The notes: generated by a model from the sequence alone, not told the origin. Shown: positions 10,560-13,065, counted from the stretch's first letter. The stretch: DNA of 40,000 nt from Lysinibacillus capsici (GCF_003367505.1 NZ_PXXX01000022.1:17625-57624), one strand, 5' to 3'. Numbers and translations: made by a program.

Positions 10560-10580
10560 TATTTGGATATAATCGTTTAA

Positions 10581-10606
10581 GACTACCTTTTGGTAGTCTT
10601 TTTTTT
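10581..10606 (+). terminator. Rho-independent terminator
   Basis: GACTACC-tttt-GGTAGTC followed by T8. Confidence 0.85.
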
Positions 10607-10779
10607 GTTGTAAAAATAACTATTTACGGGGATTAATATTTGATATTTATGTTGACGTTAGTTAATAAAAATGGCCATTGAAAGAGTAGTTGCACTAGCG
10701 ACTTTCTTAAAATTTATTAGCAAATTGGTTAACTTTCAGACAGCATTGATAACAAAAAGCTAAAGAAGTTGAAGAAAGC

Positions 10780-10858
10780 AAAAAAGACACTACCCCAAAA
10801 GAGTAGCGCCCACCAAAAGTTAATAAAATGAAGGTTAAGGCTGACACCCTTAGCCTTC
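10780..10858 (-). ncRNA. Candidate ~80-nt small RNA (minus strand)
   Basis: Minus-strand promoter TTGTTT-17-TATATT (10893-10865). 5' hairpin at 10858-10830. Terminator stem 10809-10801/10796-10786 whose non-Watson-Crick pairs are G-U only on the minus strand, followed by U6 (10785-10780). No ORF. Confidence 0.4.
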
Positions 10859-10864
10859 ACCCTA

Positions 10865-10893
10865 AATATAAAATATTTATACATGATAAACAA
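10865..10893 (-). promoter_or_regulatory. Putative sigma-A promoter of the candidate sRNA
   Basis: The minus strand reads TTGTTT (10893-10888), 17 nt, then TATATT (10870-10865). Confidence 0.35.
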
Positions 10894-10921
10894 TAAATCA
10901 TATTTAAAAGAGGATAAAATT

Positions 10922-11008
10922 ATGATGACTGTTACTTTTGTCTTAATTGGTTTAACATGGATAGTAATAGGAGCAACTTTTATTACTATTCGAAAAAATA
11001 AACGATAG
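10922..11008 (+). CDS. 28-aa hydrophobic peptide with basic tail (type I toxin-like)
   Basis: MMTVTFVLIGLTWIVIGATFITIRKNKR. SD agagga lies 7 nt upstream. It is below the ORF-track size cutoff. Confidence 0.4.
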   Translation: MMTVTFVLIGLTWIVIGATFITIRKNKR

Positions 11009-11022
11009 GTGGCGGAAATTAT

Positions 11023-11256
11023 ATGTCTGAAAATTACTCTTTCAACTCACGTGAAGAATTAACAGAGTATATAATAGATGAAATCATTAATACAACTGAA
11101 GCATTAGAAATACTTCAATGCTCACGACAAAATCTGAACAACTTAGTGAAACGTGGTGTGTTAACACCAATTAAAGATCTACCGAGAGATAGATTGTTCT
11201 TTAAGGAAGATATTGTTAAGCGTAAAAATGATATGGATAAGAAAGCTAAAAATTAG
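11023..11256 (+). CDS. Helix-turn-helix DNA-binding protein (excisionase/MerR-like HTH)
   Basis: TEALEILQCSRQNLNNLVKRGVLTP...RLFFKEDIVKR. Followed by a terminator. Confidence 0.65.
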   Translation: MSENYSFNSREELTEYIIDEIINTTEALEILQCSRQNLNNLVKRGVLTPIKDLPRDRLFFKEDIVKRKNDMDKKAKN

Positions 11257-11281
11257 CACATCAAATTGGTGTGCTTTTTTT
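11255..11281 (+). terminator. Rho-independent terminator
   Basis: AGCACAtc-aaatt-ggTGTGCT followed by T7. Confidence 0.8.
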
Positions 11282-11424
11282 ATCCTATATCCATACTTTA
11301 TATCGTTTTGTACCTTTACATTATAGGAAGGTAAGAATCAAGCAAACTCACGTAACTAACGCAAGATGTAAAAGGCTCGGTTATATTATGTGAAAAGAGT
11401 ACTGTTTTAAGGAGGTTGCTGTGG

Positions 11425-11610
11425 ATGACAAACAATAAATTTTACTACGCATATTCACCTAATCTATATCGATATTTAAAGGCGACAGGTTTCCGTTATA
11501 TTTGTACTGGACTTAATGAATCAACCATGCGTCAGTTCTGGCAATATGAACGCACACCAGAACTAAGCGCAGCCCTTACGTCATATGCGGAGAATAAGCC
11601 TTCTAAATAA
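11425..11610 (+). CDS. Small protein, DUF5659-like (tentative)
   Basis: ATG 11425 lies behind SD aaggagg. The pattern YSPNLYRYLKATGFRY...FWQYERTPELSAAL resembles small phage/plasmid DUF5659 proteins, from memory. Confidence 0.5.
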   Translation: MTNNKFYYAYSPNLYRYLKATGFRYICTGLNESTMRQFWQYERTPELSAALTSYAENKPSK

Positions 11611-11634
11611 GGCAGTGCTAGGAGGTTAAGTGGA

Positions 11635-12108
11635 ATGATGGTAAATCAAACGAAACGTGGATTCGTACAGATTTCTAACGCTATATTCACGCACTATAAC
11701 TTTTATCCGAAGTATAATGGTACTTCAATACAAGTTTACGGGTATCTTACAAAATTAAATAACTCCGATTATGGATATGCATTTCCGACTAATATACAAG
11801 TTATGCGAGATTTAGGGATTAGCGATAAAACCTTTAATAATGCGGTAAAGACGCTTGTTGCTTGTGGATTGGTGACAGTTTGTAAACATAAAGGAGCGAT
11901 GTTTCACAACAACTTGTATTATGTACATGAACCTATAGAAGATATGACGGAGTTTTTCGCTAAGTATCCAGAAGCAAAAGAGGTGTGGGAAGCGAAACAA
12001 GCAACGGTTGATAAAGTAGCTAGACGAAAGTCAGTTGATAAAGAAGCGTATAAAGATGCTCAGACAGCAGCAAAAAGTGATGTAGACGCTGTTTTAGAAT
12101 GGTTATGA
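11635..12108 (+). CDS. Replication initiator / replisome-organiser-like winged-helix protein
   Basis: An N-terminal wHTH-like region (FPTNIQVMRDLGISDKTFNNAVKTLVACGLVTV). SD aggagg. The stop lies 10 nt before the iteron array. Confidence 0.55.
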   Translation: MMVNQTKRGFVQISNAIFTHYNFYPKYNGTSIQVYGYLTKLNNSDYGYAFPTNIQVMRDLGISDKTFNNAVKTLVACGLVTVCKHKGAMFHNNLYYVHEPIEDMTEFFAKYPEAKEVWEAKQATVDKVARRKSVDKEAYKDAQTAAKSDVDAVLEWL

Positions 12109-12118
12109 CAGATAGCAC

Positions 12119-12179
12119 ACAGTAGTTTTTACTGTACGACACAGTAAAATTTACTGTAAGGCACAGTAGTTTTTACTGC
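12119..12179. repeat. Three 17-bp palindromic iterons at 22-bp phasing
   Basis: ACAGTA-N5-TACTGT at 12119-12135 and 12141-12157. A third copy at 12163-12179 ends in C instead of T. Confidence 0.85.
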
Positions 12180-12180
12180 G

Positions 12181-12233
12181 TATAAATATTTACCGTATAA
12201 ATATTTACTTATAAATATTTACTATAAATAATT
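12181..12233. repeat. AT-rich tandem 13-mers (DNA-unwinding-element-like)
   Basis: TATAAATATTTAC at 12181, 12196 and 12210, plus a partial copy at 12223. Confidence 0.85.
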
Positions 12234-12238
12234 CCATT

Positions 12239-12268
12239 TACGATTATTTGCTAACGCAAATAATCGTA
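12239..12268. repeat. Perfect 13-bp inverted repeat (hairpin/cruciform)
   Basis: TACGATTATTTGC-taac-GCAAATAATCGTA. Confidence 0.85.
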
Positions 12269-12331
12269 GCTATCAATAATAATATATCTTAGTGTAATTC
12301 TTTTAAATAATACGATAAAGAAATACACCTC

Positions 12332-12348
12332 ACAGTAATTTTTACTGT
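12332..12348. repeat. Fourth iteron copy
   Basis: ACAGTAATTTTTACTGT. Confidence 0.8.
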
Positions 12349-12385
12349 GCGCTATTTGCGATGTTATTAATGGTAAAACTAAAGT

Positions 12386-12419
12386 AAAAAAAGACACCCT
12401 AACAATAAATTAAGGCGTC
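12386..12419 (-). terminator. Strand-specific rho-independent terminator of the antisense small-protein operon
   Basis: Minus-strand RNA GACGCCUUAA-uuuauug-UUAGGGUGUC followed by U7. The two non-Watson-Crick positions are G-U only on the minus strand. Confidence 0.8.
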
Positions 12420-12531
12420 AACAATCATTGATTATTCTATATGTGATTCGTATTTTCTCGGATTTGGCTGGTCTTTTTCAAGTAGCCATACACGACCAAT
12501 CTTACGACAAAAGACTTCTCGCGGCACTTTT

Positions 12532-12729
12532 TTAGTCGTTGTTTTCACCTCGTTTGTTGATTATTTCTAGTATGGTGTTAACTATGAAAAGAATGACAAT
12601 TAAGACGTACAGTGCTATGAAAAAATAGTCTGACGTCGTTAGATTATTAAAGTCTGTTGTCCGAGGAATTAAAATGCTCAGTGCAATGATGATAGCAATG
12701 TCAAATATTCGTTTGAGAGTCGTTTGCAT
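12532..12729 (-). CDS. Small membrane protein with two predicted TM helices
   Basis: 65 aa with two hydrophobic stretches. It lies inside the promoter-to-terminator unit, but no clear SD was seen. Confidence 0.45.
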   Translation of the reverse strand: MQTTLKRIFDIAIIIALSILIPRTTDFNNLTTSDYFFIALYVLIVILFIVNTILEIINKRGENND

Positions 12730-12788
12730 ATTGTTAGTGGTTACGATAAAATACTAAGTATAAAGGAGGCGCTAACCTCCTTCATATG

Positions 12789-12944
12789 CTACTTGCGACG
12801 TTTTCCTTTGCGATGGGGGCGTCGCTTTTTGTTGTTCTTACGCTTGTTATTCTTTAATTGCTGTATGTTGAGAGCAAATGAAGAAAGTCCGCCTAAGATA
12901 CCAACAATTGTAGCTATGTGTTTTAGTATAGCTTCGTAATCCAC
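12789..12944 (-). CDS. 51-aa single-TM protein with an extremely basic tail
   Basis: GTG 12944 lies 8 nt after SD aaggagg. Sequence MDYEAILKHIATIVGILGGLSSFALNIQQLKNNKRKNNKKRRPHRKGKRRK. The ORF-track start at 12995 was rejected because it has no SD. Confidence 0.6.
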   Translation of the reverse strand: MDYEAILKHIATIVGILGGLSSFALNIQQLKNNKRKNNKKRRPHRKGKRRK

Positions 12945-12971
12945 TTGGTTCACCTCCTTTTCTATACTCTT

Positions 12972-13000
12972 ATTATAACATTCGCATTGACCCACGTCTA
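12972..13000 (-). promoter_or_regulatory. Sigma-A-type promoter for the antisense small-protein operon
   Basis: The minus strand reads TAGACG (13000-12995), 17 nt, then TATAAT (12977-12972). Confidence 0.55.
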
Positions 13001-13065
13001 TATAAAATACCGTATTTTTAACGTTAATTTACCGTAAAATTTTAAGAAAGGAACGATGCTAGGAT

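Follow-up and report, generated by a model that had tools for sequence, protein, structure and literature searches.

The DNA analysed here is a stretch of 40,000 nucleotides from Lysinibacillus capsici (the window, G000:C15:17625-57624, a part of contig C15; positions are counted from its first letter), and the subject of this work is the region 10560-13065, hereafter the island, which precedes the small terminase gene terS of a phage-like element. Our main finding is that the island rather probably represents a recombination-prone junction between early or regulatory genes and packaging genes. It would hold an origin-type core, formed by a winged-helix protein gene and a repeat array, together with a decayed and an intact toxin-antitoxin (TA)-like unit. 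The anatomy of the island, its conservation and the change of the iterons along with the protein encoded beside them were observed in this analysis.

The core begins with a gene for a winged-helix protein of 157 amino acids (aa) at 11635-12108 on the plus strand, which contains an HTH_36 helix-turn-helix (HTH) domain and is a putative iteron-binding initiator of the DnaD-N/RepA_N-like type. Behind it runs the repeat array (12117-12351), with a G+C content of 26.9%. Repeat analysis resolved in this array three tandem 22-bp iterons built on the palindrome ACAGTA-N5-TACTGT (12117-12182), three AT-rich direct repeats of 14-15 bp, C[GT]TATAAATATTTAC, which form a putative unwinding element (12179-12222), and a hairpin or cruciform with a 13-bp stem and a TAAC loop, followed by GCTATC (12239-12268). 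A fourth iteron, detected by repeat analysis and comparison, is located 169 bp after the third (12330-12351) and has a conserved ACGATAAAGAAA ahead of it. The iteron pattern gave 7 matches in the window, all of them in the array, when 0.14 were expected, and across the whole genome it occurs in clustered form only there. As in iteron-type origins, phased tandem repeats specific to the adjacent initiator-like gene stand beside an AT-rich element. An earlier note on this DNA had proposed a Rep-like protein with an origin-like repeat array at this place, and the three phased iterons with the fourth, the AT repeats, the hairpin and the initiator-type matches of the protein agree with that proposal. 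The ACGATAAAGAAA element was also considered as a repeated late-promoter motif; this was discarded, the 3 matches obtained against 0.86 expected not being significant.

For comparison, four relatives with an HTH_36 gene were fetched and the loci C10, C17, C22 and C24 of the same genome were added. The cassette formed by the winged helix-turn-helix (wHTH) gene and its array was found at at least 16 further loci in several Bacillales genera. The arrays included those of L031, L023, L026, L040-L043, the Sporosarcina phage Lietuvens (39% identity) and the loci C22, C24 and C17, besides loci from Paenibacillus vini, Gottfriedia luciferensis, Bacillus sp. and Mangrovibacillus sp. The order of elements is shared: two or three 22-bp iterons, three 13-15-bp repeats of the TATAnAnACTTAC type, a hairpin, an AT-rich stretch and a last iteron. 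The hairpins of the compared loci were read directly from the sequence, automatic picking being confused by the palindromic iterons. Across the cassettes the hairpin loop (TAAC or TAAA) and the GCTATC-like sequence are kept while the stems differ with compensating changes. The iterons differ in each lineage and their half-sites change symmetrically, being ACAGTA/TACTGT in the window and ACGGTA/TACCGT in L026. The iterons therefore co-vary with the protein, which is direct comparative evidence that the wHTH protein reads them. The TATAnAnACTTAC-type AT repeats and the hairpin loop are similar even where the iterons are unrelated, and this conservation while the iterons change suggests that both elements serve a function independent of the specificity of the protein. 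A literature search returned no description of the wHTH-array cassette or of the origin of phage Lietuvens.

With respect to the protein, its only match in Pfam is HTH_36, with no match to RepA_N, and its matches in PHROGs were replication initiators and DnaD-like loaders, covering the N-terminal part only. Towards the C-terminus it has a long helix, and its tail is acidic with EWL as the last residues. When the family profile was compared with the PDB, the matches were DnaD-N (2vn2, 1e-4) and the N-domains of staphylococcal RepA_N proteins (4pt7, 5kbj, 4pql and 4pta, 4e-4 to 1e-3). The alignment to these initiator domains extended over about 100 residues; regulators of the MarR/ArsR type ranked lower and matched in the HTH only. 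An AlphaFold2 model (predicted local distance difference test, pLDDT, 80.1) submitted to Foldseek placed 4pql, 5kbj and 4pt7 near the top with TM-scores of 0.47-0.55. The wHTH family comprises about 148 clusters at 50% identity, mostly of 140-185 aa, and its members commonly have an acidic tail ending in W-L/F. DnaD_N was matched by 16 of 46 members, and some match RP-C, RepL or Phage_rep_O. The homologous-protein search gave 4 close relatives of the 157-aa protein.

Two further occurrences of the family were seen. A predicted protein of 3,816 aa (P0009, from the representative library) contains 12 separate wHTH-domain matches (E 1.9e-33). The 7.3-kb Bacillus cereus plasmid pBFR_1 (NZ_CP009604.1), which has no typed replicon, encodes a 164-aa homologue (32% identity, L022 3884-4378). 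This homologue is annotated as a transcriptional regulator, and behind its gene inverted 22-nt sites flank an AT-rich stretch; the homologue and these sites may be the real Rep and origin of pBFR_1.

The cassette stands ahead of terS in all the relatives of the phage that were found, at 39-97% protein identity, and these include a cultured, plaque-isolated Sporosarcina phage. A second cassette is present in the same element at C15 6063-6560. It encodes a 104-aa HTH_36 protein, has different iterons with the same hairpin and GCTATCGCTCC block, and is placed directly before the genes of an IstB-like loader and a DnaB-like helicase. Both the short and the ~150-aa wHTH proteins are kept in five relatives, Lietuvens among them, with arrays behind the short ones too, and three of these five relatives with both cassettes have a clear third HTH_36 gene, for a protein of 276-328 aa. 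Since all the relatives keep the copy before terS and a second, shorter one, the cassette is a trait of the lineage rather than a hitchhiker. Between the lysogeny switch of the C17 element and its HNH-terS genes, no replication-type function other than the cassette is present. Different genes follow the array (terS, small open reading frames (ORFs) or a loader operon), which is what one would expect of a self-contained module. The integrated C17 element itself (~17000-28200, L030) carries int, ImmA, XRE, two small genes, the wHTH gene with its array, a toxin-like gene, HNH, terS and terL, and continues with the portal, a ClpP-like protease and the capsid; no other replication genes were seen in it.

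We infer that the cassette is an origin with a private origin-binding protein. Considering the position of the second cassette next to the loader, helicase, primase and family-A polymerase genes, and that of a third HTH_36 gene beside the Alp7A-like gene, the island copy would be an additional origin, retained throughout the lineage. The 157-aa protein would bind as dimers to the three in-phase palindromic iterons, 22 bp or two helical turns apart, and also to the fourth iteron about 170 bp away. The binding sites would bracket the three AT-rich 15-mers and the conserved hairpin, and binding at both sides would stress and open the AT-rich repeats, with the acidic C-terminal tail (EWL) recruiting helicase or loader. 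The island origin may serve a different replication mode (lytic or late versus plasmid), and the cassette may also gate transcription into terS. DNA binding and origin firing are activities that we infer for the cassette, as are toxicity and RNA antitoxin action for the units described below. A bolder version, which we hold to be doubtful, would be that the lineage, one of ~60-kb Bacillales phage-plasmids, runs on two or three initiator-origin pairs with private wHTH proteins from a hitherto undescribed family of ~100-170 aa, that the pair before terS is a dedicated late origin whose firing or occupied fourth iteron couples the concatemer switch to transcription of the packaging operon, and that the hotspot collects a new family of type I TA systems with the antisense RNA between two membrane peptides.

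Several observations weigh against an origin in the island. The matches to initiator domains are weak (TM-score 0.47-0.55, E ~1e-4) and MarR-type repressors score little worse; the 157-aa protein is without any helicase-loading domain; the G+C skew of the contig showed no turn inside the island; and the group of homologues L034-L039 (45% identity) has no array. Moreover, three in-phase palindromic operators with a distal site are also the layout of a looping repressor, and in several loci the last iteron is 10-80 nt ahead of the start of the next gene, as an operator would be. It is thus conceivable, though in our estimation rather unlikely, that the wHTH protein is a transcription regulator which binds the iterons cooperatively, loops to the fourth site and represses or activates transcription into the next operon (terS and late genes), or controls the gene that encodes it; AT repeats and hairpin would then be promoter or attenuator elements. 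Such a regulator would account for the spacing of the palindromic iterons by two helical turns and for the distal site, for a last iteron located just upstream of the Shine-Dalgarno (SD) sequence of the next gene in L026, L040, L042, L046 and L048, and for the conserved ACGATAAAGAAA-like motif ahead of it. It would also be in line with the MarR-/ArsR-type regulators among the structural matches, with a protein that has no helicase-loading domain and with a skew without inflection in the island. Nevertheless, the best matches in sequence and structure are initiator N-domains aligned over ~100 residues, and the operon downstream varies by locus (terS, replication genes, unknown ORFs), while in the window 700 bp of antisense genes separate the array from terS. 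Conservation of the AT 13-15-mers and of the hairpin loop does not depend on the specificity of the iterons, which fits a host-read or physical role such as unwinding, and the cassette of the C17 element fills the slot of a replication module. Two other functions were considered for the cassette and rejected. Against a pac or cos site speaks the terminal repeat of Lietuvens, which is found ~1 kb past the cassette, with the terS-like gene on one side and terL on the other; the distance from the cassette to terS also exceeds 2 kb in C22 and C24. Against a partition centromere speak the lack of a neighbouring NTPase and the presence of the cassette in an element that is integrated and in a phage competent for lytic growth.

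If the cassette is an origin, it would constitute a compact and recognisable module, a gene of ~150 aa plus ~300 bp, present in temperate phages, phage-plasmids and elements like integrative and conjugative elements (ICEs) across Bacillales. Annotation would be improved for the ~148 clusters (50% identity) that are now labelled generically as HTH or transcriptional regulator, candidate minimal replicons would be available for Bacillus-group vectors, and it could be asked what makes a single phage retain two or three initiator-origin pairs.

At both sides of the core there are small membrane-protein genes. By alignment, the left and the right ORFs belong to the same unannotated family, and each has a convergent candidate antisense RNA. 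This toxin-like family occurs in 20 of the 49 genomes of the genus (~40%), with 5 copies in this genome, and its members range from 37 to 66 aa, hydrophobic in the core and basic in the tail; in size and shape they resemble type I toxins, the intact copy being under 60 aa. The earlier note had suspected toxin-like cargo in the island, and two copies of a small toxin-like family, the left one decayed and the right one intact, point in the same direction. As far as can be judged from sequence, the flanking units are a probable new family of type I TA members.

In the right unit, the intact toxin-like protein of 51 aa (TA-2 type, 12944-12789, minus strand) starts at a GTG behind a conserved SD and consists of M-D-Y-E, a hydrophobic stretch and the polybasic tail KKRRPHRKGKRRK. 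Its predicted strong promoter, TAGACG-17-TGTTATAAT, and the 5' untranslated region (5'UTR) with the SD occupy 12945-13000. This promoter and leader are 80-93% conserved across many genomes of the genus and form, together with the 3' end and its hairpins, the best-conserved DNA of the island across the genus. Downstream of the toxin-like gene and without an SD of its own is the gene of a 65-aa protein with two transmembrane (TM) segments (12729-12532, minus strand; weak DUF1056 match, 0.007), and in the relatives too a small TM gene follows the toxin-like gene. A candidate antisense small RNA of ~80 nt, sRNA-2 (12757-12835, plus strand), has two hairpins, the second of which is a terminator inside the 3' coding end of the toxin-like gene. 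It is preceded by a promoter-like TTTGCA-18-TAAAAT (12723-12752), whose hexamers recur in C22, C24 and C17, and has a fold z-score of -3.56. Of 9 loci compared in this region, 6 have an antisense strand that folds better by 1.6-9.3 kcal/mol, and in the 3 others the difference does not exceed 0.6 kcal/mol. The Arg/Lys codons that form the GCGACG...CGTCGC stem and the T-run of the opposite strand are invariant in sequences otherwise 70-75% identical. A remnant corresponding to the C-terminal half of a 66-aa HTH gene (12432-12548, minus strand), intact in L023, is also found; the two-TM gene appears to have replaced the front half of that gene. The right unit would be an intact unit of the family, in which a membrane toxin of 51 aa, polybasic at its tail, is combined with a convergent antisense RNA and another small membrane protein. 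In the carrier state this unit would probably be driven by a strong promoter of its own, stabilising the plasmid-prophage.

The left unit contains a decayed toxin-like ORF of the TA-1 type (10671-10763, plus strand), which has lost promoter and SD and has a truncated charged tail. Intact TA-1 versions of 37-46 aa, with promoter, the 5'UTR AAGAGTATAGAAAGGAGG and SD, exist in L031, C10 and G020, and in L027 a 1.6-kb insertion removed the start. The candidate antisense sRNA-1 (10860-10778, minus strand, ~83 nt) comprises a 5' hairpin (10830-10858) and a terminator (10811-10785), with a predicted promoter formed by TTGTTT (10893-10888) and TATATT (10870-10865) separated by 17 nt, and its fold z-score is -4.85. 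The promoter hexamers and the 10-bp 5' hairpin are invariant across 6 loci, and the terminator stem contains G.U pairs that are valid on the minus strand only, plus one compensatory pair. The covariance model R1 found sRNA-1 in 5 of 49 genomes. At the four loci with mapped toxin matches (C10, G020, G026 and G066), the TA-1 ORF and sRNA-1 overlap or adjoin each other at the 3' end of the ORF. As regards the evidence, sRNA-1 is strongly predicted and sRNA-2 less so. A 29-nt stretch overlapping the sRNA-1 -35 element (10882-10910) was 93% identical to nine other genomes of the genus at the same query coordinates.

Next to sRNA-1 there is a gene with an SD for a single-TM peptide of 28 aa with a basic end (10922-11008, plus strand), conserved in 6 of 6 loci and without a family match in the scans of the Pfam, NCBIfam and PHROG libraries. 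It lies just before the gene of an HTH_17/MerR-like DNA-binding protein of 77 aa of the 'excisionase family' (11023-11256, plus strand; Pfam HTH_17 1.5e-5, PHROG 4691 2.6e-27), which has ~70% nucleotide identity to the C10 and G026 loci. No integrase or recombinase match that could be a partner for the excisionase label of PHROG 4691 was found on C15, and this name is probably a fold label only. The left unit would be a decayed type I TA-like unit with a truncated toxin ORF and a still-intact ~83-nt antisense RNA at its 3' end, followed downstream by the 28-aa membrane peptide and the HTH_17 protein.

The toxin assignment has points against it. The 51-aa protein has no family match in Pfam, NCBIfam or PHROG, and the -35 hexamer of sRNA-2 overlaps the start codon of the two-TM gene and may be a coding coincidence. 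No match to the 51-aa protein was obtained by tblastn, run with the low-complexity filter on, in a collection of 50,697 phage records, the inclusion of SPbeta among these being unconfirmed and a direct comparison with YonT, TxpA or BsrG not being part of the search; the homologous-protein search gave 2 close relatives. The small membrane ORFs could instead encode lysogenic-conversion or superinfection-exclusion proteins or holin-like modulators, the hairpins being plain terminators with no antisense RNA, which we find somewhat unlikely. No homology to known toxins was detected, the hairpin between the two minus-strand genes functions in either orientation, the sRNA-2 promoter is weak and overlaps coding sequence, and the two-TM protein has its weak match to a phage protein (DUF1056), all of which would suit these roles. 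What they leave unexplained is sRNA-1, with its conserved promoter, its invariant 5' hairpin, a terminator that pairs on the antisense strand only and the location of this terminator inside the 3' coding end of the opposing ORF wherever toxin matches were also mapped. They also do not account for the Arg/Lys codons of the sRNA-2 terminator, invariant amid 70-75% identity, nor for a left copy whose decay is typical of toxins, the toxin being lost and the RNA kept.

The modules of the island are exchanged separately. L027, with 95-97% DNA identity, has an additional 1.6 kb at window position 10672 (L027:2414-4039), a short way past the terminator at the left edge. This segment contains three genes on the minus strand, one of which encodes a fragment (127 aa) of the Rep of a rolling-circle plasmid (Pfam Rep_1), and it marks an insertion hotspot. 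In L023 (82% protein identity), 3.5 kb of unrelated genes replace 10560-11293, and DUF5659 and the two-TM gene are absent; in L026 (45%), four other small genes are upstream and nothing lies between the array and terS. The DUF5659 protein (64 aa, 11416-11610, plus strand; 26.2 bits with a cut-off of 23.6), encoded upstream of the wHTH gene, is its partner in this phage and L027 only, with other DNA in L023 and L026. The prophage-like loci C22, C24 and C17 share 11274-11329 and 12722-13036 and not the intervening 1.4 kb, and C10 shares 10660-11228. Because these loci share different segments, the island is, by sequence comparison, a mosaic of at least three independently exchanged modules and not one unit. 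Concerning variable presence in relatives, for which the earlier note had proposed to look, this was found for the flanks, which differ even at 95-97% identity; the wHTH-array cassette was kept in all the relatives found. The junction shows in fine detail the turnover of accessory genes among near-identical phages.

The same note had offered a hitchhiking mini-replicon as an explanation, and with the cassette kept at its place in all relatives found, at 39-97% protein identity, this did not hold. We consider it very unlikely that the whole island is a foreign mini-replicon or satellite with toxin cargo inserted in the phage. Its low G+C, the terminators that insulate both sides and the Rep-like gene with its array would be consistent with such an insertion, and so would the Rep_1 fragment at the same hotspot in L027 and the existence of small plasmids such as pBFR_1 (7.3 kb), whose homologue is labelled only as a regulator in the absence of a typed replicon. 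Yet the cassette occupies the same place in relatives down to 39% identity, a plaque-isolated phage included, and the modules at its sides vary without regard to it. At the borders of the island there is no integrase, transposase or terminal repeat, and the relatives that the left and right modules have in other parts of this genome are separate.

The composition of the island and its terminators were as the earlier note had described them. The G+C profile gave 33.3% at 10560-13065, against 40.0% in the left flank and 40.3% in the right flank; 3% of the 2.5-kb windows across the 40 kb were equally low, the remainder of them at the far end. Terminator-like sites in 9500-14000 amounted to 13, against 3.0 +/- 1.9 in shuffles, and there are three good terminators per strand inside the island. 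On the plus strand, the intrinsic terminator at 10579-10610 closes a gene pair (sigma-like and 124 aa) and marks the left edge of the variable zone, another at 11255-11281 ends the unit of the 28-aa peptide and HTH_17, and the scan, which gave 10579-10600 and 11255-11275 for these two, placed a third at 12810-12825. On the minus strand the scan gave, besides that of sRNA-1 (10811-10785), terminators at 12786-12759 and at 12419-12393, the last of which ends the leftward unit. All the listed contents, namely the 28-aa peptide, an sRNA candidate, the HTH protein, DUF5659, the Rep-like protein with its array and two membrane ORFs, were present; the start of the gene with the polybasic tail had to be revised, being likely the GTG at 12944 (51 aa) and not that of the 68-aa ORF. 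A conserved non-coding block, possibly a promoter, lies at 11274-11354: its part 11274-11329 is ~79-83% identical to C22, C24 and C17, in differing neighbourhoods, and 11293-11354 is 81% identical to L023. A scan of 9000-14500 with Rfam (E<=1) and a megablast search of the island against the 50,697 phage records gave no match.

Regarding the element that hosts the island, contig C15 has 57,977 bp and identical 57-bp ends, so that it closes on itself. No match to tyrosine or serine recombinases (PF00589, PF00239) was found on it, and an Alp7A-like actin is encoded on it outside the window. Its TerL shares 57% identity with the TerL of Bacillus phage phBC6A51, and relatives of TerL are encoded on many records of 55-70 kb deposited as plasmids from Paenibacillus, Brevibacillus and Bacillus. 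The element is thus circular and combines a phage gene set with a partition function, the search for an integrase having given none. It is probably a phage-plasmid, because the contig closes on itself, no integrase was found and an Alp7A-like actin is present; this host had been suggested before, and the TerL kin on plasmid records accord with it. The relatives are classed with direct terminal repeats, and terminally redundant virion DNA also yields a circular assembly, so the circular assembly alone is not proof of a phage-plasmid.

The main genes for maintenance and replication are located outside the window, at C15 2.8-17.6 kb. There the Alp7A-like actin gene is divergent from that of a 286-aa HTH_36 protein, and the 104-aa HTH_36 protein, the IstB-like loader, the DnaB-like helicase, a Toprim primase and a family-A polymerase (PolA) are encoded. 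Replication and maintenance genes (actin, 286-aa HTH_36, loader, helicase, primase and PolA) are therefore 12-25 kb upstream of the island, and the G+C skew minimum of C15 is there too, at ~4 kb of the contig between the Alp7A-like actin and the 286-aa HTH_36 genes. For this reason the suggestion that the island is the replication and maintenance module of the phage could not be sustained; that of plasmid-mode replication and partition is likely the Alp7A-like actin/286-aa HTH_36 region.

Some other features of the neighbourhood should be mentioned. The motif TTACCGTA(A) is clustered at C15 3936 and 3965, in the promoter region of the alp7A-like gene, and appears again at window positions 13008 and 13029, just upstream of terS and of the toxin promoter. 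Inverted copies exist at the corresponding place in C22, C24 and C17. The motif is four times as frequent on C15 as in the genome on average, and it may be a shared operator. The right boundary of the island is terS (13066-13437, plus strand), an HTH small terminase gene of the phBC6A51 type. The spacer between terS and terL (13438-14084) has 647 nt and no ORF, and within it 13711-13894 is 75-81% conserved across many genomes of the genus. In Sporosarcina phage Lietuvens a 437-bp direct terminal repeat is situated between the terS-like ORF99 and terL, and since this repeat occupies the equivalent place, the spacer probably holds the genome ends or the packaging site.

By comparison with known systems, the cassette would be a new variant of iteron-type origins, with a small stand-alone initiator family and two or three pairs per phage. 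The N-domain of RepA_N initiators binds iterons and resembles DnaD-N. The RepA_N plasmid initiators of Firmicutes (RepA of pSK41 and pTZ2162; 4pql, 4pt7, 5kbj) and DnaD-N (2vn2, 2v79) likewise have a winged-helix N-domain of ~110 residues, and the binding of repeated sites at the origin, predicted for the 157-aa protein, is another likeness to RepA_N initiators. The differences are that the match reaches only E ~1e-4 with none to RepA_N in Pfam, that the protein has only ~150 aa, with a single long helix and an acidic tail in place of the host-specific C-terminal domain of RepA_N, and that the iterons are downstream of the gene and not inside it. The origins of phages, Staphylococcus aureus pathogenicity islands (SaPIs) and phage-inducible chromosomal islands (PICIs) lie just 3' of the initiator gene, with sets of iterons flanking an AT-rich stretch. 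The cassette shares with SaPI/PICI origins the position behind the initiator gene, the repeats at both sides of the AT-rich region and a specificity that differs between relatives. The Rep of SaPIs is a large primase-helicase, whereas here there is a bare DNA-binding module, with helicase, loader and primase elsewhere or supplied by the host. RepA and the ori of the Vibrio cholerae phage-inducible chromosomal island-like element (PLE) are reportedly a further case for comparison. Phages with two origins are also known, such as SPP1 (oriL and oriR) and P1 (oriR with RepA, oriL with RepL); as in them, there is more than one origin-type site per genome, and one of these is remote from the replication genes. 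In SPP1 a single initiator serves the two origins, while each cassette described here has its own divergent wHTH protein and iterons.

With respect to the flanking units, the yonT/SR6/yoyJ locus of the Bacillus subtilis prophage SPbeta consists of a toxin, a convergent RNA of ~100 nt and a second small ORF (PMC5848175). The units of the island are alike in the small membrane toxin on a polycistronic mRNA, the antisense RNA over the toxin's 3' end (~100 nt in SR6), the second small ORF beyond the antisense gene, the prophage location and the decay of partners in relatives (PMC5848175). Unlike SR6, sRNA-1 stops short of the ribosome-binding site of the downstream peptide. The likeness to yonT is one of layout, with toxin and RNA predicted here. 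The type I toxins of Clostridioides difficile prophages have 30-56 aa, a hydrophobic N-terminus and a lysine-rich charged C-terminus (PMC6563280), and the 51-aa family has a similar hydrophobic N-terminus and basic tail; it belongs to another genus, its tail is Arg/Lys-rich with a conserved KRRP..K.KRRK, and the comparison was made via family libraries only. Such toxins are widespread in phages, prophages and plasmids, where a role in stabilising the element has been proposed (PMC6563280), and the toxin-like family described here is a testable candidate for a new type I TA family that would stabilise plasmid-prophages.

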